Part shown: positions 6,299 through 58,957 of the stretch, in pieces
How positions within the stretch are numbered: position 1 is the stretch's first letter
Layout: each line of letters begins with the position of its first letter
Position numbers and translations under genes: made by a program
From: Elusimicrobia bacterium HGW-Elusimicrobia-1
GTDB lineage: Bacteria; Elusimicrobiota; Endomicrobiia; PHAN01
Length of the DNA stretch: 64,000 nucleotides
Reading direction: 5' to 3'
NCBI GenBank assembly: GCA_002841695.1
Contig: PHAN01000002.1
Coordinates: 90,807-154,806, forward strand
The notes under the pieces: model-generated
Database searches by the model: none
What the model saw: only the letters and a program-made list of their open reading frames with translations
What the model was told of the DNA's origin: nothing

Positions 6299-6370
6299 AG
6301 GGGTGTCCGAAGGACGAGGTGTTATTCCCCTTTTACAAAAGGGGTGTCCCGAAGGGACGGGGTATTTGAG
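6137..6370. repeat. Cluster of short CCCCTTT-N-AAAGGGG type hairpins (P1-related) overlapping the 3' end of the giant gene
   Basis: Successive inverted repeats: ccctctcccatcgagggagaggg, cacccctttaataaaggggaa, ttcccctcttttagaggggtg, ttccccttttacaaaaggggtg. Confidence 0.6.
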
Positions 6371-6447
6371 GGGTAAAATGATGGCGCGATTTTAACAGGA
6401 TATGTGATAAAAAAAGTCAAGGGTAAACCCTTGACTGGGAGGTAGTT

Positions 6448-7584: not shown

Positions 7585-7635
7585 GGATAAAATATAGAAT
7601 TAAGTAACCGATACAAACGCGTTGGCACATTACGT

Positions 7636-7720
7636 AAAATCTCCCCTAACCCCTCTTTTTCAAAGAGGGGGAATAAGGGAACAATCCCCCTTTATTAAAG
7701 GGGGATAAAGGGGGATTTTT
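7636..7720. repeat. P1 palindromic element (AAATCCCCCT...CCCCCTTTnAAAGGGGG...AGGGGGATTT)
   Basis: Terminal inverted repeat aaaatctcccct / agggggatttt enclosing two internal hairpins; same family at 39948, 40383, 50775, 58173. Confidence 0.7.
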
Positions 7721-7751
7721 GAAATCGTCTCGTTTGTATTAAATTGCTGAT

Positions 7752-8849
7752 ATGAAAAAATCGAAGACGTTTCTATCGGTGGCTCTTTTAGTCGTCGCGT
7801 TTGCGTCGGCGGGTAGGATTTGCGCCCAACTCCCCGCCGGCGCGGGCGCGTTCGCGCAGTGGGGGAATTTCCAGAAAAAAATAGCCCTCCAGCGCGGCGT
7901 CGGCGTAAGCGCATGGGAAGACCGAGGCGACATAAGCTACGAGCAGTACGGGATGTATGCCGCGACGATGTCTCCCGTCGGAGACGGCACGTATCAGATA
8001 AAATTTGATTTGTATCCGGGCGCGGAATATAATTTCGCGTTCTTCGCCGTTTCGACGACGCCTTTGGCCGGCGTCACGACAGGTCTCACTTATTTCGACG
8101 CCGTTCCGAATCACGGCTCGGACGCGGCTTTCATCGCCTCGACCTCGCCCGCGGCGCCGCTTGCTTCCGATACGCGCTCGGCGGAATACAGGTCCATAGG
8201 CGGCGACGCCCGTCGATACGTCGCAATACCGGATCTCGCGCAGGGCACGACGTTTTACGTTTTCAGCAATTGGGCTTCGACCCCATCCGCCCCGACGGAC
8301 CTTCGCGCCCGGCCCGGCGACTCCAAGGTTCATCTTACATGGGGCGCGCCCTACGGCTGGTGGGGCACGGGCTCCCAACAATACAAAGCCATTGATGTAA
8401 TCGCGGGGGGAGCGTATGTTATTTACCGCTCGTCGGTGGCGGCGGGCGGCCCATACGAAATAGTGGCCTCGACTCCCGGACATTGTTTCTCATGGACGGA
8501 TACGAACGTTCAGAACGGAGTGCGATATTATTACGCCGTCTCGTCGAGCGACGCTTACAAAGGCGACGCCGAGGGGGTTCTCGGCGATGTCAATTTATGC
8601 TCGGACGCGGCGTCGTCACAGACGCCGGGAGCATCTCCGGGTCAGGCGGTTCCGATAAGATTCAGAGTCGAAGGCATCGACTGGAAGGTGATAAAAGAGA
8701 AGGGTTATCTCGCGTGGCTCACGCCGAACGCGGCTTCGGATGGGGCGCCGCCGTGCCCGCCCGCAAGAATCCCCGCGCGGCTCGTCGAAGTAAAACTTTC
8801 GAAAACATTGAAAGACAGAATAAGTGATGCGATTAGATGGTTGTTGTAG
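7752..8849 (+). CDS. Secreted protein of the same module family (unknown function)
   Basis: Signal peptide MKKSKTFLSVALLVVAFASAGRICAQ; motifs GDGTYQIKFDLYPGAEYNFAFFA, TYFDAVPNHG, TTFYVFSNWAS, PIRFRVEG shared with 6448..7584 and C-terminus of 5..6298. Confidence 0.7.
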   Translation: MKKSKTFLSVALLVVAFASAGRICAQLPAGAGAFAQWGNFQKKIALQRGVGVSAWEDRGDISYEQYGMYAATMSPVGDGTYQIKFDLYPGAEYNFAFFAVSTTPLAGVTTGLTYFDAVPNHGSDAAFIASTSPAAPLASDTRSAEYRSIGGDARRYVAIPDLAQGTTFYVFSNWASTPSAPTDLRARPGDSKVHLTWGAPYGWWGTGSQQYKAIDVIAGGAYVIYRSSVAAGGPYEIVASTPGHCFSWTDTNVQNGVRYYYAVSSSDAYKGDAEGVLGDVNLCSDAASSQTPGASPGQAVPIRFRVEGIDWKVIKEKGYLAWLTPNAASDGAPPCPPARIPARLVEVKLSKTLKDRISDAIRWLL

Positions 8850-8906
8850 TGTAGGGGGCTTTATGTTCGTAACAAATTTACGTATTTACGCCCTGTAGTG
8901 TAGGGG

Positions 8907-9080
8907 CTTGTCCCCGTAGGCAAAAGGACTTGTCCCCGTAGGCAAAAGGACTTGTCTCCGTAGGCAAAAGGACTTGTCTCCGTAGGCAAAAGGGCTTGTC
9001 CCCGTAGGCAAAAGGGCTTGTCCCCGTAGGCAAAAGGACTTGTCTCCGTAGACAAAAGGGCTTGTCCCCGTAGACAAAAA
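8907..9080. repeat. Tandem repeat, 8 copies of a 22-bp unit (cttgtccccgtaggcaaaagga), ending at the RAYT start codon
   Basis: Eight head-to-tail units with few substitutions, no spacers; first unit overlaps REP-like gtagtgtaggggcttgtcccc. Confidence 0.85.
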
Positions 9081-9538
9081 TGGAACCACCAAAAAAAATC
9101 CGGCTGGAAAAAGAACTATATTCACAACCCGGAAGAATATATTTTGTTACTGTTAATACAAATTTTAAAAAAGGTTTTTTTATAGAGGACAACTTTAATC
9201 GCGAAATTATACAGTGTTTATTGACGGAGAGAAATAACAGATATAGTATTTTCGTATATTGTTTGATGCCTGACCATATTCATTTTTTAATTTCAACAAA
9301 TGCTGAAAATTATTCAATTACTGATTTTGTGAATAGATTTAAAGGATTGACAACAAGAATTGGTTGGAAATACGGTGTTGAAAAAGTTCTATGGCAAAGA
9401 AGATTTTACGATCATATATTAAGAAAGCAAGAAGATGCTAAAAAAATTGCGGAGTATATAGTTAGCAATCCTGTAAGAAAAGGTTTGGTTAAAAATTGGA
9501 AAGAATATCCATATTGTGGGTATATAGATGAATTTTAA
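9080..9538 (+). CDS. REP-associated tyrosine transposase (IS200/IS605 TnpA-like, HUH Y1 family)
   Basis: 152 aa; HUH motif in CLMPDHIHFLIS; conserved C-terminal tyrosine region AEYIVSNPVRKGLV; codon usage AT-rich relative to neighbours. Confidence 0.8.
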   Translation: MEPPKKIRLEKELYSQPGRIYFVTVNTNFKKGFFIEDNFNREIIQCLLTERNNRYSIFVYCLMPDHIHFLISTNAENYSITDFVNRFKGLTTRIGWKYGVEKVLWQRRFYDHILRKQEDAKKIAEYIVSNPVRKGLVKNWKEYPYCGYIDEF

Positions 9539-12215
9539 ATTACGCCCGTGTAGTGTAGGGATTTATGCCCGTAACAAATTTGCGTATTTACGCCCACAAG
9601 GGGCTACATTGCATACGTATTTACGCCCGCAAGGGGCTACACTACTGTTATTATTTATTTGCAATTTGCTTTATGCTCTTGAAATCGGAACTCCTGCGGG
9701 TGAGACGGGCGGCTTTGCGACGCAGCAGAAACATTTTTACGGCGACTATCTTTCGTCGGGCTCGCCTTCGGACTCCGTTTGGAGTTCGTCGGCGGCGATG
9801 ACACGCGAGGCGCTCGCCGACGGCACGACGATATACTTCGCGGACATTCCGGTAACGGCGGGCAACACCTTTTACTACTATTTTAAAACTCAATCGTCGG
9901 GCGAGCAAAAAACGCCGGTATACAGAACTATCTACGTCAGCAGTTCGAATCCCGGCGAAATTATCGTCGACGGAACGGCGTATCCGGCGGCGGGTCTCGT
10001 TGCGGCGGCTACGGTCTGGCACAACTTCTCGGACGCTCCGCCGCCTCCGGCCAATCTCACTTCTTTCTGGTCAGCCGCCAACGACTTCGTATCTCTTGAA
10101 TGGGACAACCCGCTTTTCGACGGAACCGCTGTTTTCGATCTTACGGGCGGAGGCGGTTATGAGATATGGCGCTCAAGCGTATCGTTTTCCGACGGTATGG
10201 CCGTGATATCTTCCGTCACGGCGATTTTAAGCCGCATGAGTTTTCCTGATTCGTCCGTCGAGGCGGGCGCGACTTATTATTACCGCGTCCGCGCCTACGA
10301 CGCGTATCTTCCGCCAATGCTTTCGTCTCCCGCGCAAACTTCGCCCGCATCGAAAAGAAATTACGTCACGGTTGCCCTCGAGGTCGACGTATTCGCGCTA
10401 TCGGGAGTAACCGGGGTTTCCGTTATCGGAGATTTCACCTCGCCGCCGTTTTACAAAGGCCGTCTGAGTATGGATTACGCCGGCGGCGGCAAATGGCGGC
10501 TCGAACACGCCGACGCTTCGCTTTACTCCGGAGCGCTCATCAAATACAAATATCTCGTCAACGGCGAACTTTATGAACCCGATCTGCCGCCTGCGCTCGG
10601 AGGGCCGTACAGAAATGTCGCGATAAAGGATGAGGGTTCGCGCAGAATGACTATTAAAGACGTCTGGTCGGTCTGGACTCCGACGGGAACGCCGTCGAAC
10701 CTGCCGCGGTTTATGACGGCTTTTTCCGCCGAGCCGTCCGCCGGCGCCGTCAAAATCACATGGGACTGCGACCCCTTTTCGACGGGCACTCTTCTGGGTT
10801 ACGCACTTGAGCGCTCGTCGTTCGCCGCCGGCGGTTATTCCGTAATATCTTCGCCGGATATCCTGGGCCCCGCGACATTCTACTACTCGGACGTCCTCGC
10901 CGACGGCTCGACGGCTTTCTACAGGATCGCCGCCGTATCCTCGTCGGGACAATGGTCGGAGTTCTCCGATGCCGTAAAGGCCAATCCTCCGTCCGTCGGG
11001 GAATCTCTGCCGCGATACAATCCCGCCGCCCAAGAGGTTTTCGCGGCGGGCGATTTTATTTGCGATATCGGTAATCTGACGGGTGAAGTCATACTTGCGT
11101 GGAATGCCGCGTCTCATGACGCGGCCTACGGCGCGGCGAGCGCATACATTGTCAAATACGCGACATTCCCGATAATCGGCGCCGATTCTTTTCATCGCGC
11201 AAAGACCGCCGGCGCGGCGCGCGGTTTGCCGTTGGGCGCGACGGGGCGTCTGACGACTTTGAACCTCGGCGGGGACTGCCCGGGTTTTTACTTTGCGGTC
11301 TGCGCGGTCTACGGCTCGTGGCACGTCGTGGGATTTTCAACTTCCGTCGTGGCGGTAGCCCCCAAGGCCTTCGACGCCAAGGATGGCGGCCTCGTCGTCA
11401 AAACGTTGCGTTTCGCGGGATCCTCGCCGGAGGCGCCGAGCGTGGCGGCGATGGAGTTTCCGCCGGGTGCGCTTCAACAGGGCGAATATCTCGGAGTCAT
11501 AAAAAATCTCGGGGAATTACGGCTCGACGGATCGGTCGCGGCCAAGATAGACGCGGCCAATTCACTCGCCTCGCGTGATGCCAGATTCGGCTATGTCGCG
11601 GATAACGAGAACCTTGCGTCGTCGAGCGTTTTCGCTTTCGATCTTTACGATTCGGCGAAAAACGATTACTTTAATCCCGTCGCCGGCAGAAGAGCGCGCA
11701 AAGACATAGTCGTCTCGCTGTCTTACGCAGGGCTGTCCATTGTGCCGGAGGAGTTGAAAGTCGCGCGCCTCAACGAAAAAAACGATTTCTGGCGGATACT
11801 GAAAGATATCAAACCCGATATAGACCGCGACGCCAAGCTCATAAAGTTCAAAACTAAGGAACTCTCGGTCTACGCACTCTTTCGCGCGCCGGCTCCCGCC
11901 GCCGATCTTTCGAACGTAGCGGTTTATCCGAACCCCTTCAAGCCGCACGACGGCTTACGCGAAACGGGCGACTATTCGACGGGAATCAGATTCACCAACC
12001 TCACACGGAACGCGGATATCAGGATTTATAATATAGCCGGCGAATTGGTCAGATACAAAGGGCTTGAAGCCGACGAGATCGGAGAGTGCCGCTGGGACGC
12101 CATGAACGACGACGGTGAACGCGTCGCAAGCGGCGTTTACATTTTCATTGCGAAAGATGAAAGCGTCAAGGTCGGCAAAAACCATTTCACAGGAAAAGTG
12201 GGAATTGTAAGATAA
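9528..12215 (+). CDS. Large FN3-containing surface protein with C-terminal FlgD-Ig/T9SS-like sorting domain (start codon uncertain; N-terminus encoded by REP sequence)
   Basis: 895-aa ORF; FN3 signature ATYYYRVRAYD; C-terminus AVYPNPFKP...IRIYNIAGELVRY...WDAMNDDGERVASGVYIFIAKD...GKVGIVR. Confidence 0.7.
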   Translation: MNFKLRPCSVGIYARNKFAYLRPQGATLHTYLRPQGATLLLLFICNLLYALEIGTPAGETGGFATQQKHFYGDYLSSGSPSDSVWSSSAAMTREALADGTTIYFADIPVTAGNTFYYYFKTQSSGEQKTPVYRTIYVSSSNPGEIIVDGTAYPAAGLVAAATVWHNFSDAPPPPANLTSFWSAANDFVSLEWDNPLFDGTAVFDLTGGGGYEIWRSSVSFSDGMAVISSVTAILSRMSFPDSSVEAGATYYYRVRAYDAYLPPMLSSPAQTSPASKRNYVTVALEVDVFALSGVTGVSVIGDFTSPPFYKGRLSMDYAGGGKWRLEHADASLYSGALIKYKYLVNGELYEPDLPPALGGPYRNVAIKDEGSRRMTIKDVWSVWTPTGTPSNLPRFMTAFSAEPSAGAVKITWDCDPFSTGTLLGYALERSSFAAGGYSVISSPDILGPATFYYSDVLADGSTAFYRIAAVSSSGQWSEFSDAVKANPPSVGESLPRYNPAAQEVFAAGDFICDIGNLTGEVILAWNAASHDAAYGAASAYIVKYATFPIIGADSFHRAKTAGAARGLPLGATGRLTTLNLGGDCPGFYFAVCAVYGSWHVVGFSTSVVAVAPKAFDAKDGGLVVKTLRFAGSSPEAPSVAAMEFPPGALQQGEYLGVIKNLGELRLDGSVAAKIDAANSLASRDARFGYVADNENLASSSVFAFDLYDSAKNDYFNPVAGRRARKDIVVSLSYAGLSIVPEELKVARLNEKNDFWRILKDIKPDIDRDAKLIKFKTKELSVYALFRAPAPAADLSNVAVYPNPFKPHDGLRETGDYSTGIRFTNLTRNADIRIYNIAGELVRYKGLEADEIGECRWDAMNDDGERVASGVYIFIAKDESVKVGKNHFTGKVGIVR

Positions 12216-12257
12216 AGTGGTCAGTGGATAGTGGTTAGTAAATAAAACGGATAATAT

Positions 12258-13250
12258 ATGAGAAAATTGTGTCTTTCGACTAGTGTTTCGACGGCAACTC
12301 GCGGACGAGGACGGCCCCTGCGACGGATTGCCCTTGTCCTTGCCTTTACTATCCACTATACACTGACCACTAACCACTCTCTACACGCCGCCGGCACGAC
12401 ATCCGCGACTTTTCTTAAACTCGGTGTCGGGGCGAGACCGGTGGGGATGGCCTCGGCGTTCGCAGGCGTGGCCGACGACGTCAACTCCGTCGCATGGAAC
12501 CCTGCGGGGCTCGCCTCAGTCGACGCGAAAGAATTTTCGTTTATGCATCTTGAACATTTTCAGGACGTGCGCTACGATTCGCTGTGCTATGCTCATCCTA
12601 TGAAAAAAACGGTCGTCGCATTCGGCTTTGGCTATCTGTATACCGACGAGATAACAAGGACTTTCATAGACGACGATGTTTATGCGGGTTTTCGCGCGCA
12701 GGGAGATTACCGGCTCCAGGATAGGACGTTTTTTGTTGCGGCGGCAAGACGAATCTCCGATGATAAGGCCGTCGGAGCGCTCGTCAGGTGGCTTTCGGAG
12801 AGGATAGAAGATAATGAAGCGACGGGGCTCGCCGCCGACGTCGGATATCTTCATCTCGTGACGGACCGTCTCGCGTTCGGTTTGTCCGTCCAGAATATCG
12901 GCGGGACGATAAGATTCATCGCGGCCGACGAAATGCTGCCGCTGACTTTTCGCGCGGGCTTCGGATATGACGTTGTCGCCGGAAAACTCAAACTCGCGCT
13001 CGACTTCGTCAAGCCCGTCGACTATCAACTTTCGATCAATCTCGGCGCCGAGTACAGGGCGTTTGACGCGCTCGCCGTCAGAGGCGGATGGAGCTTCAAA
13101 GATTTGTTCTACGACGACCGGCTTAACGGAACATCCGGCGCGGCTCTGGGGATGGGGTTTTCTTTTCACAATTATTCTCTTGACTACGCTTTCGCGCCTT
13201 ATGGAGAGCTCGGTTATTCTCACAGAATATCGTTCGGGGGAAAGTTTTGA
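12258..13250 (+). CDS. Beta-barrel outer-membrane protein, PorV/PorQ- or PorP/SprF-like
   Basis: N-terminal motif LKLGVGARPVGMASAFAGVADDVNSVAWNPAGLA; alternating beta-strand-like pattern; C-terminal ...ISFGGKF (terminal Phe). Confidence 0.6.
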   Translation: MRKLCLSTSVSTATRGRGRPLRRIALVLAFTIHYTLTTNHSLHAAGTTSATFLKLGVGARPVGMASAFAGVADDVNSVAWNPAGLASVDAKEFSFMHLEHFQDVRYDSLCYAHPMKKTVVAFGFGYLYTDEITRTFIDDDVYAGFRAQGDYRLQDRTFFVAAARRISDDKAVGALVRWLSERIEDNEATGLAADVGYLHLVTDRLAFGLSVQNIGGTIRFIAADEMLPLTFRAGFGYDVVAGKLKLALDFVKPVDYQLSINLGAEYRAFDALAVRGGWSFKDLFYDDRLNGTSGAALGMGFSFHNYSLDYAFAPYGELGYSHRISFGGKF

Positions 13251-13254
13251 AAAA

Positions 13255-13425
13255 GCAGGGTTTAGAAAGACAGGGTTTAGGGCATAGGGTCTAGGGTTTA
13301 GTAAAATGAATAAAAAACAGAGTATAAAAAAGACAGGGTTTAGGGTTCAGGGTTTAGGGGTTAGGTTTTTTTTCTTTTTTCTTTTTTCTATTTTCTATCC
13401 CCTAACCCATAGACCCTATACCCTG
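13255..13425. repeat. Leader palindrome P3 built from GGGTTTAGGG-type units; contains start codon and signal-peptide coding region of 13306..15414
   Basis: cagggtttagggcatagggtctagggtttag ... cagggtttagggttcagggtttaggggttagg ... ctatcccctaacccatagaccctataccctg; near-identical copy at 22629-22772. Confidence 0.75.
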
Positions 13426-15414
13426 CTTTATGCTACAACCCCCCACACAATTGCTATCGACGGCAACATCGCCGAATGGCGCAAAGACGAGTTGATTTAC
13501 GACGACTCCTGGAACGACTCTCCGTGGGGCGCGCAAAATGAAATCCACCGATTGTACGCCACATGGGACGACTCGGCTTTGTACCTTGGAGTATCGGGCG
13601 TTCAGAAGGACGGCAACAACCTTATCGTCTACATAGACACATCCCCGCTCGACGGAATCGCGGACGCCTCCCTTCTGAAAGATCCGGGTAATCCCTCGGG
13701 GATGTGGTGGTGGCGCAGAGGGAATAAATTCGCCCACGGCTTCAGACCGGATTTTCAGTGGCATCTTTACGAGATGAAACTGGATCCCGCGGATGGCCAC
13801 GGATTTTTCCGGCTCTATCCCGACGATACGACCGCGAATCTCAACGGCTCCGTCGCGCAGAAGGCCTCCGGCGGGGGCGCGGGCAATATCGGTTACGCCG
13901 AGATAAAGATACCGTGGCAGATTTTATTCGGCGCGGCATCTTTCCCGTCGGGAGAGGAAATCAGAATCGCGGCGGCTGTCACGGGCGGTATGGATACGCG
14001 AGGCACGCTCGATTCTTCCGACGATCTTTTCGGCTCGGCGCGCGACACGATACCCGACCAAAAGGCGGTTTTCCCCGAAGTATGGCACGATTCTTCTACG
14101 ATAGACACGTGGCTCGCTCTGAATCTTTCGGGAACCTCCGGCGACCGGTCGCCGGTGCCGCGCTCGCTCGTCTTAACTCCGCAAAGTCCGTTCGATGCGA
14201 AGGTTTCCTGGCAGACGCGCGGGATCATCGAAAGCAATCTCGACGAATACCGGCTGTATTACGCCCAAGACGGAACCGACGGGCGTTACGTCCGCGCGGC
14301 ATCGACGGAGACGTCCGCCGCGATAGAAGGCCTCGTCGCGGGTGCGACCTATCATTTTTTTCTGAGGGCGGTATATTCGGGCGAGGGGGAAGGCGGTTGT
14401 TCTGAAACGTTGGTTTCGCGGCTGCTGCGCCCTTCGCTCGCGCATTCGGCGCAAAGTGTATTTTGCTTTCCCGGTAAAATCCTCGATATTGAAGTCGAAT
14501 CCTCCGCCGCGCCGTCGGCGGTTGCGTTGCGCTATTTGTTTGACTCTGAAAATGTCTGGCGCACGTCGGCGATGAACATCGCCGGATCCAAGGCCTCATA
14601 CGCTCTTTGGCTGCCTTCAATCCCGGCCACACTGAAATATTATTTCGAAATAACGGACTCGGCCGGCACTCATCTTCTGCCCGCCTCGGCGCCGGCCTTC
14701 TCGTATGCCGTAAAGATAGAGTCGCGCGGTTCGGCGTACGCGCCGCTCTCGACGCAAACTTCGACGCTCGATTTCGGGGGAGGAGTCCTGATGGAAATAC
14801 CGCCGGACGGGCTCTCGACCGCGACGACCATCTATTTCGAATATTCATCGTCGAACGGCGATCTTTACGGCGACGGCGGACTCAGAGCGCTCGCGTATTA
14901 CGATTTTTACGCGCTTGATAGAAGCGGCAGCCGCGTCGGAGTGGTTTTCGAAAAGCCCGCGTTGATTAAGCTCAGATATTTCGACGACGACATCGCCGGC
15001 GTATCCGAATATGAGCTTTCCGTCGGGCGCATAGCCGGCGCAAGAAACGTGGCGCTCAAAGGAACGGTTTCCGCGGCCGAAAATAAAATATCTTTCGAGA
15101 CGTCCCATTTTTCCCGCTTTGCGATTTTTTCAGGAGAGACGGCCGTCTCGCCGATTGCCGGGCCGCTTAAAAAAGTCGTGCGGCCCACATTTAATCCGTC
15201 TCTGGGCGAAGTCGTGGAGTTCGACTGCGAGACGCCGTCGAAGATAGAAATATTCGATATGCGCGGTCGCCTAATCCGGACTTTTGACGGGAACTTCTGG
15301 GACGGCCGCGATTCGCTCGGCTCCAAAACTGCGCCCGGCGTATATCTTTATCGTCTCAGTACGCCCGAGCCGGGAAGAAAGAATATTTACGGCAGTTGTG
15401 TGGTAATCAGGTAA
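13306..15414 (+). CDS. Secreted surface protein with N-terminal CBM9/DOMON-like domain and C-terminal FlgD-Ig/T9SS-like domain
   Basis: 702 aa; N-terminal TIAIDGNIAEW...LYATWDDSALYLGVSGV; C-terminus RPTFNPSLGEVVEF...IEIFDMRGRLIRTF...WDGRDSLGSKTAPGVYLYRL...CVVIR. Confidence 0.7.
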   Translation: MNKKQSIKKTGFRVQGLGVRFFFFFLFSIFYPLTHRPYTLLYATTPHTIAIDGNIAEWRKDELIYDDSWNDSPWGAQNEIHRLYATWDDSALYLGVSGVQKDGNNLIVYIDTSPLDGIADASLLKDPGNPSGMWWWRRGNKFAHGFRPDFQWHLYEMKLDPADGHGFFRLYPDDTTANLNGSVAQKASGGGAGNIGYAEIKIPWQILFGAASFPSGEEIRIAAAVTGGMDTRGTLDSSDDLFGSARDTIPDQKAVFPEVWHDSSTIDTWLALNLSGTSGDRSPVPRSLVLTPQSPFDAKVSWQTRGIIESNLDEYRLYYAQDGTDGRYVRAASTETSAAIEGLVAGATYHFFLRAVYSGEGEGGCSETLVSRLLRPSLAHSAQSVFCFPGKILDIEVESSAAPSAVALRYLFDSENVWRTSAMNIAGSKASYALWLPSIPATLKYYFEITDSAGTHLLPASAPAFSYAVKIESRGSAYAPLSTQTSTLDFGGGVLMEIPPDGLSTATTIYFEYSSSNGDLYGDGGLRALAYYDFYALDRSGSRVGVVFEKPALIKLRYFDDDIAGVSEYELSVGRIAGARNVALKGTVSAAENKISFETSHFSRFAIFSGETAVSPIAGPLKKVVRPTFNPSLGEVVEFDCETPSKIEIFDMRGRLIRTFDGNFWDGRDSLGSKTAPGVYLYRLSTPEPGRKNIYGSCVVIR

Positions 15415-39947: not shown

Positions 39948-40027
39948 AAATACCTCCCCCTTTGGAAAAGGAGGATTGAGGGGGAAATCGGCCTCCCCCT
40001 TTTTAAAGGGGGAAAGAGGGGGATTTT
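39948..40027. repeat. P1 palindromic element
   Basis: aaatacctcccccttttggaaaaggaggattgagggggaaatcggcctccccctttttaaagggggaaagagggggatttt. Confidence 0.7.
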
Positions 40028-40033
40028 AATTTT

Positions 40034-40383
40034 ATGATTTTGCCATACAGTCCCAAGTTAAAATCATATTCAAGAGAATTAAGAAAGAATATGACGGATG
40101 CCGAGAAAAAAATATGGGGAAAACTCCGACGGAAGCAATTAAAGAAATGTCAATTTTACAGACAAAGAGTGATAGGTGAATATATAGTGGATTTTTTTGT
40201 TCCTCCGCCAAATTGGTCATCGAAATCGATGGCGGCCAACACTATACGAAAGATGGTATGGGCAGAGATAAGATCCGTGATGATTACATTAAAAATCTCG
40301 GTGTCAAGATATTAAGATTTACGGACAGAGAAGTTTTACAAAATATTGATTTAGTGGTTGGGCAAATATATGAAAATTTGTAA
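40034..40383 (+). pseudogene. DUF559-family endonuclease-like gene disrupted by a frameshift in a T7 homopolymer (or a homopolymer sequencing error)
   Basis: N-terminal LRKNMTDAEKKIWGKLRRKQL...FYRQRVIGEYIVDFF in frame 1; shifting +1 after the T run gives CSSAKLVIEIDGGQHY...GVKILRFTDREVLQNIDLVVGQIYENL ending at 40383; AT-rich. Confidence 0.7.
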
Positions 40384-40462
40384 AAATCCCCCTGTGTCCC
40401 CCTTTAAAAAAGGGGGATTAAGACATTTCGTCGAGCTCCCCTTTTAAAAAGGGGGAATAGAA
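40383..40462. repeat. P1 palindromic element
   Basis: aaaaatccccctgtgtccccctttaaaaaagggggattaag...gctccccttttaaaaagggggaat. Confidence 0.7.
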
Positions 40463-47803: not shown

Positions 47804-47912
47804 AGGGCAGTGGTTAGTGGCGAGTGGTTAGTGGATAGAAAGGGCAGTGGTTAGTTTTTTGTTTTTACTATCCACTATTCACTAACCACTCGCCACTATA
47901 CACTAGCCACTT
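47804..47912. repeat. P2 hairpin (agtggttagtggatag arms around T-rich loop), terminator-like, downstream of giant gene
   Basis: gggcagtggttagtggcgagtggttagtggatagaaagggcagtggttagttttttgtttttactatccactattcactaaccactcgccactata. Confidence 0.7.
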
Positions 47913-47932: not shown

Positions 47933-48883
47933 ATGAAAAAATTCTCATCGACAGGGTCATTGTTTATTCTCTTGTTTATCGTTTTTACTATCCACTACCC
48001 ACTAACCACTAACCACTGTCTTTACGCCGCCGGTCTCTCGTCTCCCAACGCCTCGATGTATCTGGGTAACCTTAAAATCGGCCAGACGTATTCACTCAGA
48101 CAACTGCTGGGCTACCCATTCAAAGCCACCTACAAAGGACGCTCAATGGCCGACCTGTCCATAAGCGTGATCGCGCTGTCCACCGCGACATCCGACGGAT
48201 ACGAACCCATCCCGTCCAACGACTGGATAGAAATCGAACGCTCGCATTTCTCTCTCGATCCGGGCCAGACCGCCGAAACCGACATCCTCATAAAAATCCC
48301 CGACGACACCGCGCATCTTGACAAAAAATATATCGTCATAATACAGCCACAGTCGGGCGCGCCGCGCGCCAGCGGAGCGGGCATTGTTTTCGGCACGGCG
48401 CTCAGGTGCCAGTTGCGCCTCGACATAGCCGCGCTTCCTCCCACGCCGGACGAAATCCGGCAGTTACGGCGCCTTCGGCACGGACAGTCGGTCGGTGTGG
48501 TTGTGTCTCCGGAAAGAATTTTCGTAAACGAAATCGAGGCGGGAAAAAAGATAGACGTCAAAAAAACTTTCGGCGATGTTATAAAAATAGTGAACTCGTC
48601 GGATTTCGACGTAGAGGCCGTCATAGAGTCCGCCGACCCCGCCAAGTTCGGGATGTTCGCCCCGTCGGGTTATGAAACCGCCCCCGATCACAAATGGCTT
48701 GTGCCCGCAAAAAGAAAAATCAAGATTCAGAAAAACCGCATAGCCGAGGCGCCGGTTACCATAAACATTCCTTCCGGCCCGGAACACGAGGGGAAAAGCT
48801 ACTATTTCGCCATTGCCGTAACCGTCAAATCGCCCATAAGAGAAGTCAATCATCTGGTCAGATTCTTTGTGGATATGAAGTAG
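47933..48883 (+). CDS. Secreted protein A1 of duplicated two-gene cassette (unknown function)
   Basis: ATG 47933 with GGAGGA 5 nt upstream (track start 47921 is TTG); leader SLFILLFIVFTIHYPLTTNHCLYAA; paralogous to 51140..52039 (NLKIG, GYEPxP, HLxKKY, ISAPSGY shared). Confidence 0.7.
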   Translation: MKKFSSTGSLFILLFIVFTIHYPLTTNHCLYAAGLSSPNASMYLGNLKIGQTYSLRQLLGYPFKATYKGRSMADLSISVIALSTATSDGYEPIPSNDWIEIERSHFSLDPGQTAETDILIKIPDDTAHLDKKYIVIIQPQSGAPRASGAGIVFGTALRCQLRLDIAALPPTPDEIRQLRRLRHGQSVGVVVSPERIFVNEIEAGKKIDVKKTFGDVIKIVNSSDFDVEAVIESADPAKFGMFAPSGYETAPDHKWLVPAKRKIKIQKNRIAEAPVTINIPSGPEHEGKSYYFAIAVTVKSPIREVNHLVRFFVDMK

Positions 48884-48925
48884 CAGTGGTTAGTGAAATA
48901 AAAAAAAGTGGTTAGTGGATAGTAA
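48884..48925. repeat. P2 arm copy
   Basis: gcagtggttagtgaaataaaaaaaagtggttagtggatagt. Confidence 0.6.
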
Positions 48926-48948
48926 AAATGAAAAAGGGGGGGAATAGT

Positions 48949-49326
48949 ATGATAGGAGTTAGGAGTTATAAAGATTTAATAATCTGGCGAAAAAGTATGG
49001 AACTTGTAAAAATTGTGTACAAAGCGACCAGTAGTTTCCCGCAAAAAGAATTATTCGGATTGACAAATCAGATGAGAAGGGCAGCCGTATCGATACCTTC
49101 AAATATAGCGGAAGGGCAGGCCAGAAACCATACGAAAGAATTTGTGCAGTTTCTGTATCAGGCGTTGGGCTCCCTGGCGGAACTTGATACACAGGCAATA
49201 ATAGCCAAGGAACTGGGTTATCTAAAAGCAGTGGATAGTGGTGAGTGGATAGAAAGACAAACTGCCGAACTTCAAAAGATGACACACGGCCTACTCAAAA
49301 AACTAACCGCTATAGACAGTGGATAG
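48949..49326 (+). CDS. Four-helix-bundle protein (family formerly called 23S rRNA intervening-sequence protein)
   Basis: SYKDLIIWRKSMELVKIVYK...FGLTNQMRRAAVSIPSNIAEGQAR...ELDTQAIIAKELGYL; AT-rich; start at ATG 48949 after GGGGGG SD preferred over 48928. Confidence 0.8.
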   Translation: MIGVRSYKDLIIWRKSMELVKIVYKATSSFPQKELFGLTNQMRRAAVSIPSNIAEGQARNHTKEFVQFLYQALGSLAELDTQAIIAKELGYLKAVDSGEWIERQTAELQKMTHGLLKKLTAIDSG

Positions 49327-49410
49327 TGGCGAGTGGTTAGTGGATAGAAAGGGCAGTGGTTAGTTTTTTGTTTTTACTATCCACTATTCACTAACCACTA
49401 ACCACTGCCC
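49318..49410. repeat. P2 hairpin, terminator-like
   Basis: gggcagtggttagttttttgtttttactatccactattcactaaccactaaccactgccc (13-bp perfect outer stem). Confidence 0.7.
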
Positions 49411-50349: not shown

Positions 50350-50630
50350 AGATTAGTCACAGCAGTTTAAGGTCAGCGTAAGTTGGTCTTTGGTATCCCG
50401 CCGTAGTCCGGCGGGACTCCATAGGTTAACAAAATTACTCCCCGTAGAGGTAGACTTCCGTGTCCGCCATCATGGACGCGAATGTTTTCGGGTGTCATTT
50501 TCCCGAGACGTTTGCGACCCCGGAATTATCGGTGGCGCCGATGAAGTCGGCGCCCCATCTGTTTAAAGATTATTTTGCCGTCGCGGCTATGCGCCCGACG
50601 GCTTTTGTTTTTTATAGCCGAATAAACGAT

Positions 50631-51000
50631 TTTGCCGGCGGATGCGGTTGTCTATTCTCTACGGGGAGAAAAAACATCACCCATTCGCCGGCCTTCTTTT
50701 TTGCGGAGCGGAGGTCTATCTCTACGGGGAGAAACGCCTGCCGCTCCGCTTACTATTTTGCAGAAACGCGTCGGGAAAATCCCCCTGTATCCCCCTTTAA
50801 AAAGGGGGAATATCGCACCTCCCCCTTTGGAAAAGGGGGACTGAGGGGGATTTCAAAAAACCATTTTGCCGGCGGACCGGAAGTTTGCCTCTACGGGGAG
50901 TGCATCACTACCGGTCCCGCCGGCTTACTTTTTTTTGCGGACGGACACGAACGTCGAACCTCTACGGGGAGGCAGTACGCATCGCCCGTCCGCATCTTTT
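50631..51000 (+). repeat. Array of four ~70-bp hairpin units with conserved loop motif CTCTACGGGGAG and covarying stems, interrupted by a P1 element (50775-50853)
   Basis: Loops at 50657, 50721, 50890, 50961; stems gccggcg/cgccggc, gcggagcgg/ccgctccgc, gccggcggaccgg/ccggtcccgccggc, gcggacgg/ccgtccgc; each unit followed by a T run; reverse-complement motif ctccccgtagag at 50438. Confidence 0.7.
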
Positions 51001-51056
51001 TCGGGGGGCGTACGAGCCGCCCCTTCAACTATCGGGGGCGGACACGGTTGTCTATT

Positions 51057-51090
51057 ATCGGAGTTTATCCCCGCGAAGGCGGGGAGGGAG
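51057..51090 (+). promoter_or_regulatory. Conserved leader motif TCGGAGTTTATCC-hairpin-GGGAGGGAG, ~50 nt upstream of start codon
   Basis: tcggagtttatccccgcgaaggcggggagggag; copies at 56353-56384 and 58101-58136 with compensatory stem changes. Confidence 0.5.
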
Positions 51091-51139
51091 AAAAACACCG
51101 CCGCGTACCGCCCCCATATTTTCTTATCGGAGAAATATT

Positions 51140-52039
51140 ATGACTAAAAATGTTTTCACCCCGCTTGCTCTGCTGATTTTATCGGCATTTATTGCGCCGC
51201 GCGGTTTGGCGGCGGCCTCGATTGCCACCAATTACTCCGACGTTTACGTGGACAATCTTAAAATCGGCGGCTCCTACAATCTTACGGCCACCGCCAATTA
51301 TCCTATGTGGATATTGTGGAAAGGCGGCGACAGGGCGCTGATAAAAGTGACGCCGAAACTGCCTTTCAAGGAAGTTATGCGCGCGGGATACGAACCCGTG
51401 CCCGATATTTCGTGGATAACGGTTTCAAAAAAAGAGTTTGAACTGATGAGCGACGAAACGGCCAATATCGACGTAACGGTAAACGTGCCAAACGACCCGA
51501 AACATCTGGGCAAAAAATATCAGGCGCTCGTCGAGGTTTCGGCAAATCCGCCCAAGGGTTCGCCCGGCGTCTCGATTGCCCTTGCCGTAAACGGGAAGAT
51601 ACTTATGAGCGTGGCCGGCAAGCCGCCGACCGAAGAGGAATTGTCCGAATTAAGGCGCGAACGAATACGCGCAAGGCGGGGGGTGATCATTGAGCCGGAG
51701 CGGCTTGAGGCATCGGTAAAAGCGGGGGGCATCAACGCCGAATTAACGGCCGACGAACCGCTTAAAATTATCAATTCGTCGAGGGAAAAAGTGTCCGTGA
51801 CGATAGAATCCGTCGCGCCCGAAGTCGCCGGGATATCGGCGCCGTCGGGATATGCCAAGGGCGCGGCCAAGGACATAAGTTTTTCAAAGACGTCGGCGTC
51901 TCTTGAGCCGGACAAGATTGAAAATATCGGAGTGTTTCTCAGGAAAGTGCCGTCGGACAAGTCGTTTTATATTGTCAGAATAACCATAAAGTCGCAGACG
52001 CTTGAAGTCGCAAAATTCGTGAGGGTTTATGTCAACTGA
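51140..52039 (+). CDS. Secreted protein A2 of duplicated cassette (paralog of 47933..48883)
   Basis: ATG 51140 preferred over track start 50885, which lies in the repeat array; signal peptide MTKNVFTPLALLILSAFIAPRGLAAA. Confidence 0.7.
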   Translation: MTKNVFTPLALLILSAFIAPRGLAAASIATNYSDVYVDNLKIGGSYNLTATANYPMWILWKGGDRALIKVTPKLPFKEVMRAGYEPVPDISWITVSKKEFELMSDETANIDVTVNVPNDPKHLGKKYQALVEVSANPPKGSPGVSIALAVNGKILMSVAGKPPTEEELSELRRERIRARRGVIIEPERLEASVKAGGINAELTADEPLKIINSSREKVSVTIESVAPEVAGISAPSGYAKGAAKDISFSKTSASLEPDKIENIGVFLRKVPSDKSFYIVRITIKSQTLEVAKFVRVYVN

Positions 52040-52042
52040 GAA

Positions 52043-52162
52043 AAAGTGGGTAGTGGATAGTGACGAGTGGTTATGGGTAGTGGATAGTGGCGAGTGGTTA
52101 GTGGATAGAAAGGGCAGTGGTTAGTTTTTTGTTTTTACTATCCACTAATCACTATCCACTCT
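52043..52162. repeat. P2 hairpin cluster, terminator-like
   Basis: agtgggtagtggatagtgacgagtggttatgggtagtggatagtggcgagtggttagtggatagaaagggcagtggttagttttttgtttttactatccactaatcactatccact. Confidence 0.7.
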
Positions 52163-56119: not shown

Positions 56120-56162
56120 AGATAAAGAAGTGAATAGTGATTAGTGGATAGTAAAAGAAAAA

Positions 56163-56274
56163 ACAAGAAGCAAGATAAACCGTCATTCTGAGCGAAGCGA
56201 AGAATCCTCGTCATCTTCCGGCGAAGAATCCTCGCCATACTCTAACAAGATCCTTCGCTTCGCTCAGGATGACA
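56163..56274. repeat. Palindromic element (gtcattctgagcgaagcgaag ... cttcgcttcgctcaggatgac)
   Basis: Near-identical copy at 58838-58957. Confidence 0.7.
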
Positions 56275-56352
56275 GATAACAAGAATTTTATGGACAATAA
56301 CAAATATATTTATCGGCGCGTCGCTTCATCGGCGGGCAAACCCAAGTCAATC

Positions 56353-56384
56353 TCGGAGTTTATCCCGCCACAGGCGGGAGGGAG
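56353..56384 (+). promoter_or_regulatory. Conserved leader motif (second copy)
   Basis: tcggagtttatcccgccacaggcgggagggag, 53 nt upstream of ATG 56437. Confidence 0.5.
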
Positions 56385-56436
56385 ATTCTCTGTTTTGTCC
56401 GCCGACGAGGCGATGCCGTCTTCAAAGGAGCATTTT

Positions 56437-58074
56437 ATGAATACACTTATTAAAATCATCAAAAAATTTCCGCCGCCGTCGTCATTGTTTATTCTCTTGT
56501 TTATCGTTTTTACTATTCACTATTCACTATCCACTATTCACCCTCTTTACGCCGCATTCGAGGATATTTCCGTCGGCGGACGTCCCGCGGCTTTTTCCGG
56601 CGCGTATACAGCGGTCGAAGGCGACGCGTATTCCATCTACTACAATCCCGCGGCGCTTGCGGGTATGGCAAGGGCCGAGTTCGGCGCGCAATATTCCAAA
56701 CTTCATACGGGGCTTACGGACGGTTCGGAACTCTCCAACGCTTTTTTCGGCGTGGCGCAGCCGCTTAAATTCGGCTCGGCCGATTACGGCACAATCGGCG
56801 CGGGATGGATAAGATTCGACCTTGCGGAACTTTATCAGGAAAATACTATAATCTTGTCCTGGGCGCGTGACATTGTAAAGAACAAACTTTCCTTCGGATT
56901 CGGCGCCAAAATGCTCTCTATTACCTACGGCGAAAACGACTACACCAAAAACGCCTTCGACAACGAGGGCAACACGACCGGCGCGGCGGACCCGCTTTTC
57001 AACTATGGCTATATCAAATCCGCCGCCGACTTCGACGCCGGAATAAGATACGCTTTCGCCAAAAATTACGCCGTGGCCGCCGTCGCGCAGAATCTGGCGG
57101 GCGCAAATATATCGCTCGTCAACGACCCCAATGTCGCGCTGCCGCGTCGTTACCGTTTCGGCCTTGCTCACACCGGCAAGGCCTACGCGCTTTCGGCCGA
57201 TGTCGCGGGCGCTTCGGACTCTTCGGTAGTGCGCGGAATGGTCGGCGTCGAAAAAAGTTTCGACTTCGGTGGCGCCCTGAGGGCCGGGCTGGGAATGGGC
57301 ACCGACGGATGGGCCAATATCGCCGGCGGTTTCGGATTCAAAGCCGACGCCCTCAGCTTCGATTACGGCCTCGCATGGCCGTTGTCGGGCATAAAGAACA
57401 CTTCAGGCAGTCACAGGGTCTCGGTGAATTTCAAATTCGGGCCCGTTATGCGCCACCCCGAATCCGACTCGGAAACGCAGGTGCGCCTGGCGCAGGAAAT
57501 TACCGCCCGCAAAGAGTACGAGCAGAAATACAGGGTGTCCGAGATAGAACTCGCCCGCGCTAGAGAAGAGATAAGACAGCTCAAAAATCAGATAGAGGAA
57601 TTGCTCAAGCGTCCGTCGGCTCCCATACCGGCGCCAAGAGAAATCGCGTCGCCCAAGCCGACGGTTACGGAGACGCCCGCGGCCGTCAAACCCGGCGTAA
57701 CGCCGGCCGCGCCCGCTATGCCCACCGATATCGACGCTTTGAGAGCCGCTTATGCCAAAGAATTCAACCAGTATCAGCGCGACGCTTCCAAAATGGATAT
57801 TAAGCAGCGCATCGCGGCGGTTGACGTCATAGTCGCGCGTTATCAGGGCAAGATAAAGATAACCGAAGCCGTCGACGAACAGATGATACTCAGGAATGAA
57901 TTCGCCGCGCAGACCAAGTTCTATAACGACGCGCTTACTTACTACAAACGTCTCGTACGGCAGGGTATATCCGTCGAGGAGCGCAAGGACATACTCAATC
58001 GCATGATAACCAAGTACCAGGTGCTCGGCGTCGATGTAACTGTCGCCAAAGAGGAGCTTAAGACGGTAAAATAA
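56437..58074 (+). CDS. Beta-barrel OMP (PorV/PorQ- or PorP/SprF-like) with C-terminal coiled-coil/Pro-rich extension
   Basis: ATG 56437 after aaaggag (track start 56269 lies in repeat); leader SLFILLFIVFTIHYSLSTIHPLYAA; motif GRPAAFSGAYTAVEGDAYSIYYNPAALAG; C-terminal EIELARAREEIRQLKNQIEELLKRPSAPIPAP. Confidence 0.6.
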   Translation: MNTLIKIIKKFPPPSSLFILLFIVFTIHYSLSTIHPLYAAFEDISVGGRPAAFSGAYTAVEGDAYSIYYNPAALAGMARAEFGAQYSKLHTGLTDGSELSNAFFGVAQPLKFGSADYGTIGAGWIRFDLAELYQENTIILSWARDIVKNKLSFGFGAKMLSITYGENDYTKNAFDNEGNTTGAADPLFNYGYIKSAADFDAGIRYAFAKNYAVAAVAQNLAGANISLVNDPNVALPRRYRFGLAHTGKAYALSADVAGASDSSVVRGMVGVEKSFDFGGALRAGLGMGTDGWANIAGGFGFKADALSFDYGLAWPLSGIKNTSGSHRVSVNFKFGPVMRHPESDSETQVRLAQEITARKEYEQKYRVSEIELARAREEIRQLKNQIEELLKRPSAPIPAPREIASPKPTVTETPAAVKPGVTPAAPAMPTDIDALRAAYAKEFNQYQRDASKMDIKQRIAAVDVIVARYQGKIKITEAVDEQMILRNEFAAQTKFYNDALTYYKRLVRQGISVEERKDILNRMITKYQVLGVDVTVAKEELKTVK

Positions 58075-58100
58075 TATATCGGCGGGACACGGGGTCTACA

Positions 58101-58136
58101 TCGGAGTTTATCCCGCCATAGGCGGGTGGGGGGAGG
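58101..58136 (+). promoter_or_regulatory. Conserved leader motif (third copy, diverged)
   Basis: tcggagtttatcccgccataggcgggtggggggagg. Confidence 0.4.
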
Positions 58137-58172
58137 AAAGAACACCCGCTGTCCCGCCGGAAAAGCAAATTA

Positions 58173-58268
58173 GAAATCCCCCTGTATCCCCCTTTTAAAA
58201 GGGGGGTTGAAAGAGATTGTCGGGTGAAGTTCATCCCCCTTTGAAAAAGGGGGAAAGAGGGGGATTTA
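58173..58268. repeat. P1 palindromic element
   Basis: gaaatccccctgtatcccccttttaaaaggggggttgaaag...catccccctttgaaaaagggggaaagagggggattt. Confidence 0.7.
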
Positions 58269-58705: not shown

Positions 58706-58957
58706 AAAGTGATTAGTGGCGAGTGGTTAGTGGTTAGTAAAAGAAAAAGCAAAATGTCATTCCCGCGCCGCGCCGTAGGCGATGCTCCGCAAATGCGGGG
58801 CTGTGGGAACGCGGAAATCCAGAGCAATTAAATAGAGTCAAGAAGCGAGAGTCAAGATAAATCGTCATTCTGAGCGCAGCGAAGAATCCCCGTCATATTC
58901 CGGCGGGGAATCCTCGCCATACTCTAAGAGGATCCTTCGCTTCGCTCAGGATGACAG
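58706..58957. repeat. Composite repeat: P2 arm, gtcattcccgcg palindrome, and gtcattctgagcg...cgctcaggatgaca palindrome
   Basis: agtgattagtggcgagtggttagtggttagt; gtcattcccgcgccg...ggaacgcggaaatccagag; gtcattctgagcgcagcgaagaatcc...ggatccttcgcttcgctcaggatgacag. Confidence 0.7.

Follow-up and report, generated by a model that had tools for sequence, protein, structure and literature searches.

Tandem RNA hairpins with an invariant tip and a complementary 3′UTR element in a cell-surface-protein operon of Elusimicrobia: a candidate RNA switch between two gene cassettes

The 64,000-nucleotide stretch of Elusimicrobia bacterium HGW-Elusimicrobia-1 analysed here (the window; contig PHAN01000002.1, positions 90,807 to 154,806 of the forward strand) contains a cell-surface-protein operon in which a first gene cassette (A1-B1) is separated from a second (A2-B2 and downstream genes) by a spacer measured at 790 bp, from the B1 stop codon at 50349 to the A2 ATG at 51140, as the preliminary description of this DNA had estimated. 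Five tandem hairpin units lie between the two cassettes, and single units occur in two later spacers of the same operon. The units probably constitute a family of functional structured RNA elements that is specific to this operon. The 3′ untranslated region (3′UTR) of B1, upstream of the array, carries a single inverted element, U0, which is the reverse complement of the 5′ half of the consensus unit. We propose, with a probability of roughly 40%, that the units are terminator-like control modules acting on the operon at the RNA level and that their folding is governed by pairing with U0. So read, the system appears to be an RNA switch of a new kind, placed between two gene cassettes. From the observed anatomy, conservation, stem covariation, non-coding status, strand bias, restriction to the operon, and complementarity and energetics of U0 we infer that it acts at the RNA level, that U0 pairs with the units in vivo, and how the regulation is directed and what results from it.

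Each unit is a nested structure consisting of the 5′ arm of an outer stem (P1), a 5′ internal strand (J1), an apical hairpin (P3), a 3′ internal strand (J2) and the 3′ arm of P1, and usually ends in a U-rich tract. P1 is 8-13 bp long and differs in sequence from unit to unit, J1 is semi-conserved, with the form ..ACGGAAGUCUAC (also given as ..ACGGAAGTCTAC), and J2 is without sequence conservation. At the apex stands either the invariant CUCU[ACGG]GGAG (type I) or a longer hairpin in its stead (type II). The invariant 12-mer, CTCTACGGGGAG, is itself a mini-hairpin of 4 bp closed by an ACGG tetraloop, and the apical hairpin is often lengthened by flanking pairs that differ between units (UUCUCU/GGAGAA, CACUCU/GGAGUG, UCCUCU/GGAGGA). 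A pattern count over the window located the 12-mer on the plus strand at 50657, 50720, 50889 and 50960 and on the minus strand at 50438. These five matches compared with 0.20 expected, none of 100 shuffles reached five, and no copy was present in the window outside 50438-50971. The preliminary description had also placed four copies in hairpins and a reverse-complement copy at 50438. The hairpins and the inverted copy were confirmed, three of the plus-strand coordinates (50721, 50890 and 50961) were one base off, and the complementarity at the inverted copy proved to extend over 32 nt (50437-50468). The mini-hairpin within the 12-mer, the fifth array unit, a plain terminator upstream of the array (T0), the 32-nt extent of U0 and the two solitary units were absent from that reading.

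All units of the window lie on the plus strand, and the first four in the array are of type I. U1 (50634-50692; z -6.4) has the P1 arms GCCGGCGGATG/CATTCGCCGGC and the apex CUCU[ACGG]GGAG at 50657-50668. The P1 arms of U2 (50703-50749; z -5.7) are GCGGAGCGG/CCGCTCCGC, with the 12-mer at 50720-50731; those of U3 (50868-50924; z -5.2) are GCCGGCGG(ACCGG)/(CCGGTC)CCGCCGGC, with the 12-mer at 50889-50900; and those of U4 (50936-50994; z -3.2) are TGCGGACGG/CCGTCCGCA, with the 12-mer at 50960-50971. U5 (51034-51115; P1 GGGGGCGG/CCGCCCCC; z -3.5) is of type II; it retains J1 (ACACGGTTGTCTATTATC), has GGAGTTTAT-CCCCGC GAAG GCGGGG-AGGGAG in place of the 12-mer, and ends 13 nt 5′ of the A2 Shine-Dalgarno sequence (GGAG at 51129; ATG at 51140). 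Both solitary units are of type II as well. One (56329-56405; minimum free energy (MFE) -39.4 kcal/mol, z -4.6) lies in the spacer that separates an FN3 gene from an outer-membrane-protein gene, with the ribosome-binding site of the latter following after about 30 nt (ATG 56438), and the other (58081-58159; MFE -42 kcal/mol, z -4.1) begins 6 nt past the stop codon of the outer-membrane-protein gene (58074). Neither is followed by a T-run. Folding analyses predicted MFEs of -27 to -38 kcal/mol for U1 to U4, and z scores against dinucleotide shuffles ranged from -3.2 to -6.4 both for these four and for all seven units of the window.

Successive 12-mers from U1 to U4 are spaced by 63, 169 and 71 nt, and the linkers between units measure 8-13 nt and are U-rich after most array units. 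Linkers of this length leave no space for promoters, which makes an array of independent small-RNA genes, one of three candidates raised in the preliminary description, unlikely. A test for a CRISPR-like or type III antitoxin array was likewise negative in this spacer, as only 12 nt are identical among units and Tandem Repeats Finder (TRF) reports no array here. The STAXI and ToxI arrays of type III toxin-antitoxin systems are alike in being head-to-tail series of small structured units; their repeats, however, are near-identical and ToxI is followed by a toxin gene, whereas here the stems differ and no Rfam family matches. A small extra hairpin between U4 and U5 (51003-51023, GGGGGGC GTACGA GCCGCCCC) has no unit-like interior. 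The inner hairpin of type II units, taken on the minus strand (CCCCGC CTTC GCGGGG ATAAAC; 51060-51090, 56355-56385 and 58103-58135), may resemble a type I-E CRISPR repeat; no CRISPR array was found in the 64-kb window.

That the unit stems differ and yet stay complementary had been claimed in the preliminary description, and was confirmed as quoted there. In 41 of 43 type I units P1 was contiguous, GC-rich and 8 bp or longer, with about 12 different sequences. Pairs were counted on a fixed-length synthetic alignment of 36 distinct units, since the 3′ halves vary in length and MAFFT could not align them. Covariation was seen at each of the eight scored P1 pairs in these 36 units, whereas the four pairs of the 12-mer showed no variation. 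Standard pairs filled 90.9% of P1 cells against 63.9% in shuffles, a percentage that is partly set by construction because the P1 arms were taken as the best helix of each unit, so that the shuffles control specificity only. The covariation score of P1 was 0.696 against 0.163, with none of 500 shuffles as high, and slid controls were 46-58% paired. In a flank-shuffle test with its own helix search, the observed helices stood on average 4.2 z units higher, and 92 of 4300 shuffles matched the observed score. A compensated change could also be read directly: the ortholog of U3 in one related locus (L040) has the P1 arms GCGGACGG/CCGTCCGC in place of GCCGGCGG/CCGCCGGC around the same interior. A hidden Markov model of J1 alone, run in nhmmer, was too weak to detect units. 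The covariation thus bears out the earlier view that stems covarying around a fixed element mark a structured RNA and not random repeats. Operator repeats on double-stranded DNA, the second of the earlier candidates, leave the compensatory stem changes unexplained.

Further copies, on which the preliminary description had made its reading depend, were found as homologous arrays in eight other loci (L013, L016, L033, L040, L041, L042, L043 and L044), which were recovered by DNA-pattern scans and look-ups of flanking-protein homologs and are metagenomic, from different samples. L013 comes from an Endomicrobiia metagenome-assembled genome (MAG) and L042 from an AT-rich relative. The array scan, defined as two motif copies 40-70 nt apart in contig collections, gave 2 genuine matches out of 27 in genome contigs, most of the others being unrelated CRISPR arrays, repetitive extragenic palindromes (REPs) or coding repeats, and 1 genuine match out of 8 in metagenome contigs; in a viral contig collection there was no match to either the array pattern or U0. 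Each of the nine loci shows the same order: a B-type gene, a hairpin (H0), inverted U0, further hairpins, a plain terminator, 4-9 units and the next A- or B-type gene. All units of all loci lie on the coding strand, and U0 alone is inverted.

Unit number and type vary even among close relatives, the window having four units fewer than L043. The ortholog of U2 is of type II in L013 and L043 and of type I in the window, and L043 also has an ortholog of the last unit, U5. L033 carries a solitary type I unit in the spacer that matches the one holding the solitary type II unit at 58081-58159. L042 has a third form (type III), where a hairpin is inserted and CUC pairs across it with a distal GAG. 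The more distant A-family homologs at L046 and L047 have no adjoining units, and the sequence of L045 begins at the A-family gene, so that its upstream side is unreadable. Pfam searches of A, B and neighbouring proteins returned FN3, CHU_C, FadL-like, GGDEF and receiver domains and were otherwise uninformative, and an AlphaFold model of B had a mean pLDDT of 45.5. One locus (L016; JBGFRZ010000048.1) belongs to a MAG titled Ignavibacteria, yet has the same operon, U0 and units, and its B protein is by eye closely like that of L013; mis-binning, mislabelling or horizontal transfer are possible explanations of this oddity.

The array spacer contains a 227-codon open reading frame (ORF, 50460-51143), and the preliminary description had allowed that it might be a conserved expressed protein. 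That it encodes a real repeat protein is hardly credible. It is called as a gene in several assemblies, and BLASTP of the window ORF against that of L041 gave an E value of 4e-8, with an alignment that is a patchwork of repeat translations with 23% gaps. Within each locus, however, the 12-mer is read in frames 0, 1 and 2 (as STG, LYGE and PLRG), neither unit spacings nor indels come in multiples of 3, close relatives differ in unit number and type, and Pfam gave no match for the ORF. The spacer has only 4-6 stops per frame, so that the open frame reflects composition. The ORF is not a gene. Gene callers annotate the spacer as a hypothetical protein of 220-500 aa in the window (50460-51143), L040 (8036-8824), L041 (7987-8727) and L044 (5957-7471), where the A gene is fused with the called ORF. 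The calls seem spurious, and the element is probably mis-annotated as "hypothetical protein" in public records of the lineage.

Every type I and type II unit of the 64-kb window belongs to one operon: nhmmer and pattern searches found no unit copies beyond those listed in the 64 kb, nor elsewhere in the related loci of 6-13 kb. An Rfam scan, which the preliminary description had suggested, matched no family to the units at gathering threshold over the whole window, and at relaxed cut-offs (E <=10 for the window spacer, E <=1 for the spacer of L043) returned just microRNA noise on an unrelated palindrome. In the literature on the motif and on Elusimicrobia terminators no description of the element was found.

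The shape of the apical loop raises the idea that the units are tandem ligand-sensing, riboswitch-like aptamers, for example relatives of guanidine-II, each with P1 as its own terminator. The loop ACGG is an ACGR tetraloop and the units stand in series. Tandem riboswitches are known to sharpen responses, and in guanidine-II (mini-ykkC, RF01068) small ACGR-capped hairpins, several per leader, kiss in pairs through their tetraloops, closed in mini-ykkC by conserved G-C pairs. Here, by contrast, the loop is closed by U-G within CUCU/GGAG, the hairpin is nested, and units of types II and III lack the tetraloop. Neither mini-ykkC nor any other Rfam covariance model matched, even at E <=10, the genes concern surface proteins and not transporters or metabolic enzymes, and U0 would be left unexplained. 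We regard an aptamer of this sort as highly improbable.

The restriction of the units to one operon also bears on the possibility that they are palindromes like REPs or bacterial interspersed mosaic elements (BIMEs), on which a RAYT (Y1/HUH) transposase would act; they would then be DNA hairpins, selfish or domesticated, that built up in a long spacer. Both are clustered GC-rich extragenic hairpins of intercistronic spacers, for which roles in messenger RNA (mRNA) stabilisation and partial termination are plausible, and RAYT-like genes do occur by three arrays: a Y1_Tnp/RAYT-like gene lies 30 nt past the array in L013 (PF01797, E 3e-10), a C-terminal RAYT remnant follows the array in L016, and a Y1_Tnp gene sits inside the operon in L040; the arrays of the window, L033, L041, L043 and L044 have no RAYT neighbour. 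The RAYT-like gene of the window itself (9080-9538) is preceded by 8 tandem 22-nt repeats with CCCCGTAG, and the motif includes CTAC, the complement of the REP hallmark GTAG. However, no unit is dispersed through the 64 kb or the rest of the related loci, and unit positions are syntenic between lineages. The REP copies of a genome share a stem, whereas here about 12 stem sequences carry one fixed tip. CTAC lies in the apical loop and not at the hairpin foot, and all units have one orientation where BIMEs alternate. Canonical REPs (GTAG and a hairpin ... CTAC), a family separate from the units, are found among them in L013, L040, L042 and L043 and account for the RAYT genes. A REP-like origin is therefore very unlikely.

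The B1 3′UTR contains, in order, H0, inverted U0, two hairpins (H1 and H2) and T0, all on the plus strand and upstream of the array. U0 (ACTCCCCGTAGAGGTAGACTTCCGTGTCCGCC, 50437-50468) begins 88 nt past the B1 stop codon and spans 32 nt complementary to the P1 5′ arm, J1 and the 12-mer of the consensus unit. All 32 positions are invariant in five aligned loci, in which the surrounding UTR has a mean column identity of 65% and the B proteins are 21-82% identical to that of the window. The most diverged of these B proteins share as little as 21-28% identity, and across lineages the range is also put at 21-56%. Its position in the 3′UTR of the upstream gene is fixed in nine of nine loci. In L016 and L033 it has one deletion and one substitution each, in L041 it is partial, and in L042 it has a co-varied form. 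Sequence conservation in the units is confined to their 5′ half, the part that U0 complements. U0, to which the preliminary description had given only a passing mention, is the most conserved piece of the spacer and probably a key component.

Folding energies were computed for the 35 units of loci with a complete U0. The duplex of U0 with the unit 5′ half was predicted at -47 to -65 kcal/mol, against -23 to -41 kcal/mol for the unit folded on itself and -15 to -25 kcal/mol for shuffled U0 with the same half. By these models, pairing with U0 is for every unit more stable than self-folding. The duplex covers the P1 5′ arm and would thereby exclude the unit hairpin, as a competing segment does in an attenuator, on computational grounds. 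No leader peptide, ligand or protein that might decide between the two structures came to light. In L042 U0 and the units are altered together (GTAGACTTCCGTG to GTAAACTCCTGTG), and the L042 U0 reaches -46 kcal/mol on its own units and about -30 on units of other lineages. The apical loop of the unit (UACGGG) and a stretch of U0 (CCCGUA) are exact complements on direct reading, and by analogy with antisense kissing systems both could be presented by CUC/GAG stems.

An inverted copy facing several direct copies can also be read as a set of recombination sites, with inversion of the shufflon or invertible-promoter kind phase-varying cassette 2. One inverted copy does stand opposite several direct copies of 25-32 bp before surface-protein genes, and in L042 the repeats of both orientations changed together. 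Recombinases for such sites can be encoded elsewhere in the genome, as is Mpi in Bacteroides. The segment from U0 to the first unit, however, has one orientation at every readable locus. Four other assemblies from different samples are 100% identical over the region, and a 2.7-kb Logan contig common to 5 samples crosses it unbroken. The 32-mer is on direct reading without a dyad-symmetric core, no recombinase gene was found among the window ORFs around the locus or in the related loci, direct repeats are deletion-prone, and the covarying stems would be left unexplained. We regard inversion, too, as very unlikely.

The 3′UTR has further structured elements beside U0. H0 (50382-50430; MFE -25.7 kcal/mol, z -5.2) lies directly upstream of U0; across five loci its lower stem is kept and its upper stem is variable with compensatory changes, and in L016 the lower stem CUUUGG/CCAUAG gives way to CUUUCC/GGAUGG. 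H1 (50477-50516) is a variable hairpin between U0 and H2, with an RNAalifold helix that has double compensatory changes. H2 (50525-50554) is a conserved ATTATCGG box with the predicted hairpin GGCGCCGA-TGAAG-TCGGCGCC, and its columns are invariant in the five-locus alignment. T0 (50577-50613; MFE -19.2 kcal/mol, z -3.6) is a plain intrinsic terminator, GCCGTCGCGGC...GCCCGACGGC followed by TTTTGTTTTTT; its stem covaries between loci, its T-tract is conserved, and it is probably the end of the B1 transcript. Across the 3′UTR hairpins, RNAalifold on five sequences found 13 pairs with changes on both sides.

The proposed control would operate as follows. Its location upstream of T0 means that U0 would be part of every B1 transcript and might act in trans. 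A trans-acting factor is also implied by the solitary units of the window and L033, which stand 5-7 kb downstream. U0 RNA would meet a unit through the complementary loops UACGGG (unit) and CCCGUA (U0), and this contact would zip into a duplex of about 30 bp that takes up the P1 5′ arm and so blocks the unit hairpin. In the array, P1 with its U-rich tract would be a terminator or roadblock, and its opening would let transcription, or mRNA survival, reach cassette 2. A series of units that must all be opened would respond steeply to how much U0 RNA, in other words B1 mRNA, is present. The 12-mer would be frozen, while neighbouring pairs covary, because one U0 faces many units. The reverse direction, in which the units target the B1 3′UTR, could also apply.

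The units resemble intrinsic terminators in part. The GC-rich stem well exceeds 5 bp, while P1 encloses not a short loop but 29-43 nt or more of nested structure, and a scan for consensus terminators did not call the units. A T-run of at least 4 within 10 nt follows 28 of 43 units, and at least 5 T occur within those 10 nt in 32 of 43. A multi-terminator attenuator was the closest of the three candidates in the preliminary description, though incomplete, as the T-run is present in only those 28 units and is missing from the solitary units and many units that stand last in an array. The T-rich tracts reported after U1 to U4 are present, but begin 3-6 nt past the stem and not directly after it.

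Several observations weigh against the proposal that U0 governs terminator-like units. Action at the RNA level, termination and U0 pairing are all deduced from sequence, and the P1 pairing percentage carries the limit of construction given above. The U-rich tracts that begin 3-6 nt past P1 abut the next unit, and their absence after solitary and many last units means that termination is no general property of the units. The sequence (A/G)ATTTT stands directly 5′ of P1 in 9 of the 12 units without a preceding unit. A single U0 acting in cis could neutralise one unit only. Within the isolated 3′UTR, U0 is predicted to be no more open than its surroundings (probability of pairing 0.50-0.67 vs 0.55-0.65 elsewhere). 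Type II units lack the 12-mer with its kissing loop and call for a separate explanation; U0 would pair with them through P1 and J1 only, at about -35 kcal/mol. Finally, concerted evolution of the repeats, or a factor binding U0 and units alike, could also maintain the similarity between them.

A protein factor is the basis of a further reading, in which a dedicated RNA-binding protein reads the invariant apical hairpin, the units are intercistronic hairpins for stabilisation, processing or attenuation and adjust how much B1 is made relative to downstream products, and U0 is incidental or has another role. The CUCU/GGAG stem never covaries though adjacent pairs do, which fits sequence-specific recognition; types I and II are swapped at orthologous positions with the CUC/GAG closing pairs kept; and the solitary units without T-runs resemble stability or processing elements. 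Multi-hairpin spacers after a highly expressed subunit gene are known to set stoichiometry, as do the REP hairpins of malE-malF and the hairpins of papA and fimA. A protein reader would, however, leave unexplained the invariance and fixed position of U0, its complementarity through J1 into the P1 arm and its co-variation with the units in L042, as well as the conservation of J1 as against J2, and no gene for an RNA-binding protein is evident in the operon. We consider this reading rather unlikely.

Control of the units by U0 has its nearest counterpart in antisense attenuation. In the systems of pT181 (RNAI) and pIP501 (RNAIII), too, an RNA complements the 5′ arm of a hairpin that is GC-rich and has a U-tract, and the alternative structures are mutually exclusive. 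In plasmid antisense systems the interaction is begun by pairing of complementary loops, and pairing induces termination. In contrast, the pairing proposed here would prevent termination, one antisense element faces 4-9 serial hairpins and solitary ones kilobases away, the hairpin interiors are structured and 29-43 nt long, and the antisense lies in the 3′UTR of the preceding gene, upstream of that gene's own terminator. PyrR attenuation of the Bacillus pyr operon is similar in placing one conserved motif on differing stems at several intercistronic sites to control read-through. The pyr motif, however, is in an anti-antiterminator hairpin bound by a protein encoded in the operon, whereas the motif here is at the tip of a terminator-like hairpin, in up to nine tandem copies, and its only evident partner is an RNA, U0. 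None of the closest concepts joins differently stemmed, identically tipped tandem hairpins with a single antisense in a neighbouring 3′UTR.

In its strongest form, control by U0 would make this 3′UTR element a "master key" that opens 4-9 differently stemmed, identically tipped terminators, and the solitary ones downstream, by kissing and strand invasion. This version is speculative and, on balance, unlikely. If it were true, expression of cassette 2 would depend steeply on accumulated mRNA of the first cassette, and the array would be an RNA-only counting or threshold device that orders the assembly of a surface structure. We know of no described system that combines one trans-acting antisense element with cognate terminators in a tandem array. 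Modules acting in the proposed way would represent a new RNA family and a new regulatory layout. They would be a test case for steep, threshold-like bacterial switches made of RNA alone and for how repeated regulatory hairpins escape mispairing with each other, and would show a helix frozen in sequence by the constraint of many-to-one pairing. The practical reach is limited, as the system is so far known from one operon type in a small uncultured Elusimicrobia clade.

Other repeats surround the units. The window RAYT-like gene (PF01797 Y1_Tnp, E 6.6e-11) lies directly after 7.9 tandem copies of the 22-nt CTTGTCCCCGTAGGCAAAAGGA (8907-9079). Each copy is able, on the minus strand, to fold into a G(U/C)CU[ACGG](G/A)GAC mini-hairpin and has CTACGGGGA in common with the 12-mer, an overlap that may be coincidence or a real link to recognition by HUH enzymes. 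This gene belongs to a second, similar surface-protein cluster (5-15414), which encodes a giant protein, two proteins of about 370 aa, a FlgD_ig protein, a FadL-like outer-membrane protein and an FN3 protein and contains no hairpin units.

Paired palindromes of the form TCCCCCTTT(A/G)AAAAGGGGGA gave 15 matches in the window against 0.08 expected, at 50775-50855, 39955-40013, 40397-40456, 58187-58254, 7685-7705 and 6194-6345. One copy, unrelated to the units, interrupts the array between U2 and U3 (50775-50855), another follows the solitary unit at 58081-58159, and those within 39955-40456 flank a frameshifted ORF for a DUF559-like endonuclease. Canonical REP-like doublets (GTAG and a short hairpin ... 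hairpin and CTAC; for example GTAGCGGCGGGATTGCCATCCCGC...GGCCGCTAC) stand among the array units of relatives at differing positions (L013 minus strand, ~840-905; L040 8225-8300 and 8455-8515; L042 5100-5800, 8600-8900 and 9300-9760). Small mobile palindromes seem to gather in the array spacer as in a sink.

Heptamer-based repeats (AGTGGTTAGTGGATAG) gave 25 matches against 0 expected, in both orientations, at 47809-47911, 48907-48922, 49332-49406, 52045-52153, 56136-56151, 12216-12378 and 58722-58737. They flank a small gene for a four-helix-bundle protein (PF05635, 23S rRNA intervening-sequence protein; 48928-49326) and fill several other operon spacers, and the signal-peptide regions of both A1 (47988-48017) and the outer-membrane protein (56520-56535) contain the same heptamers. 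The spacer between the FN3 and outer-membrane-protein genes has, just upstream of the solitary unit, a long inverted repeat, GTCATTCTGAGCGAAGCGAAGAATCCT ... AGATCCTTCGCTTCGCTCAGGATGAC (56183-56275), and similar GGGAATGACA / GTCATCCCGAGCG elements are found around the array of L033.

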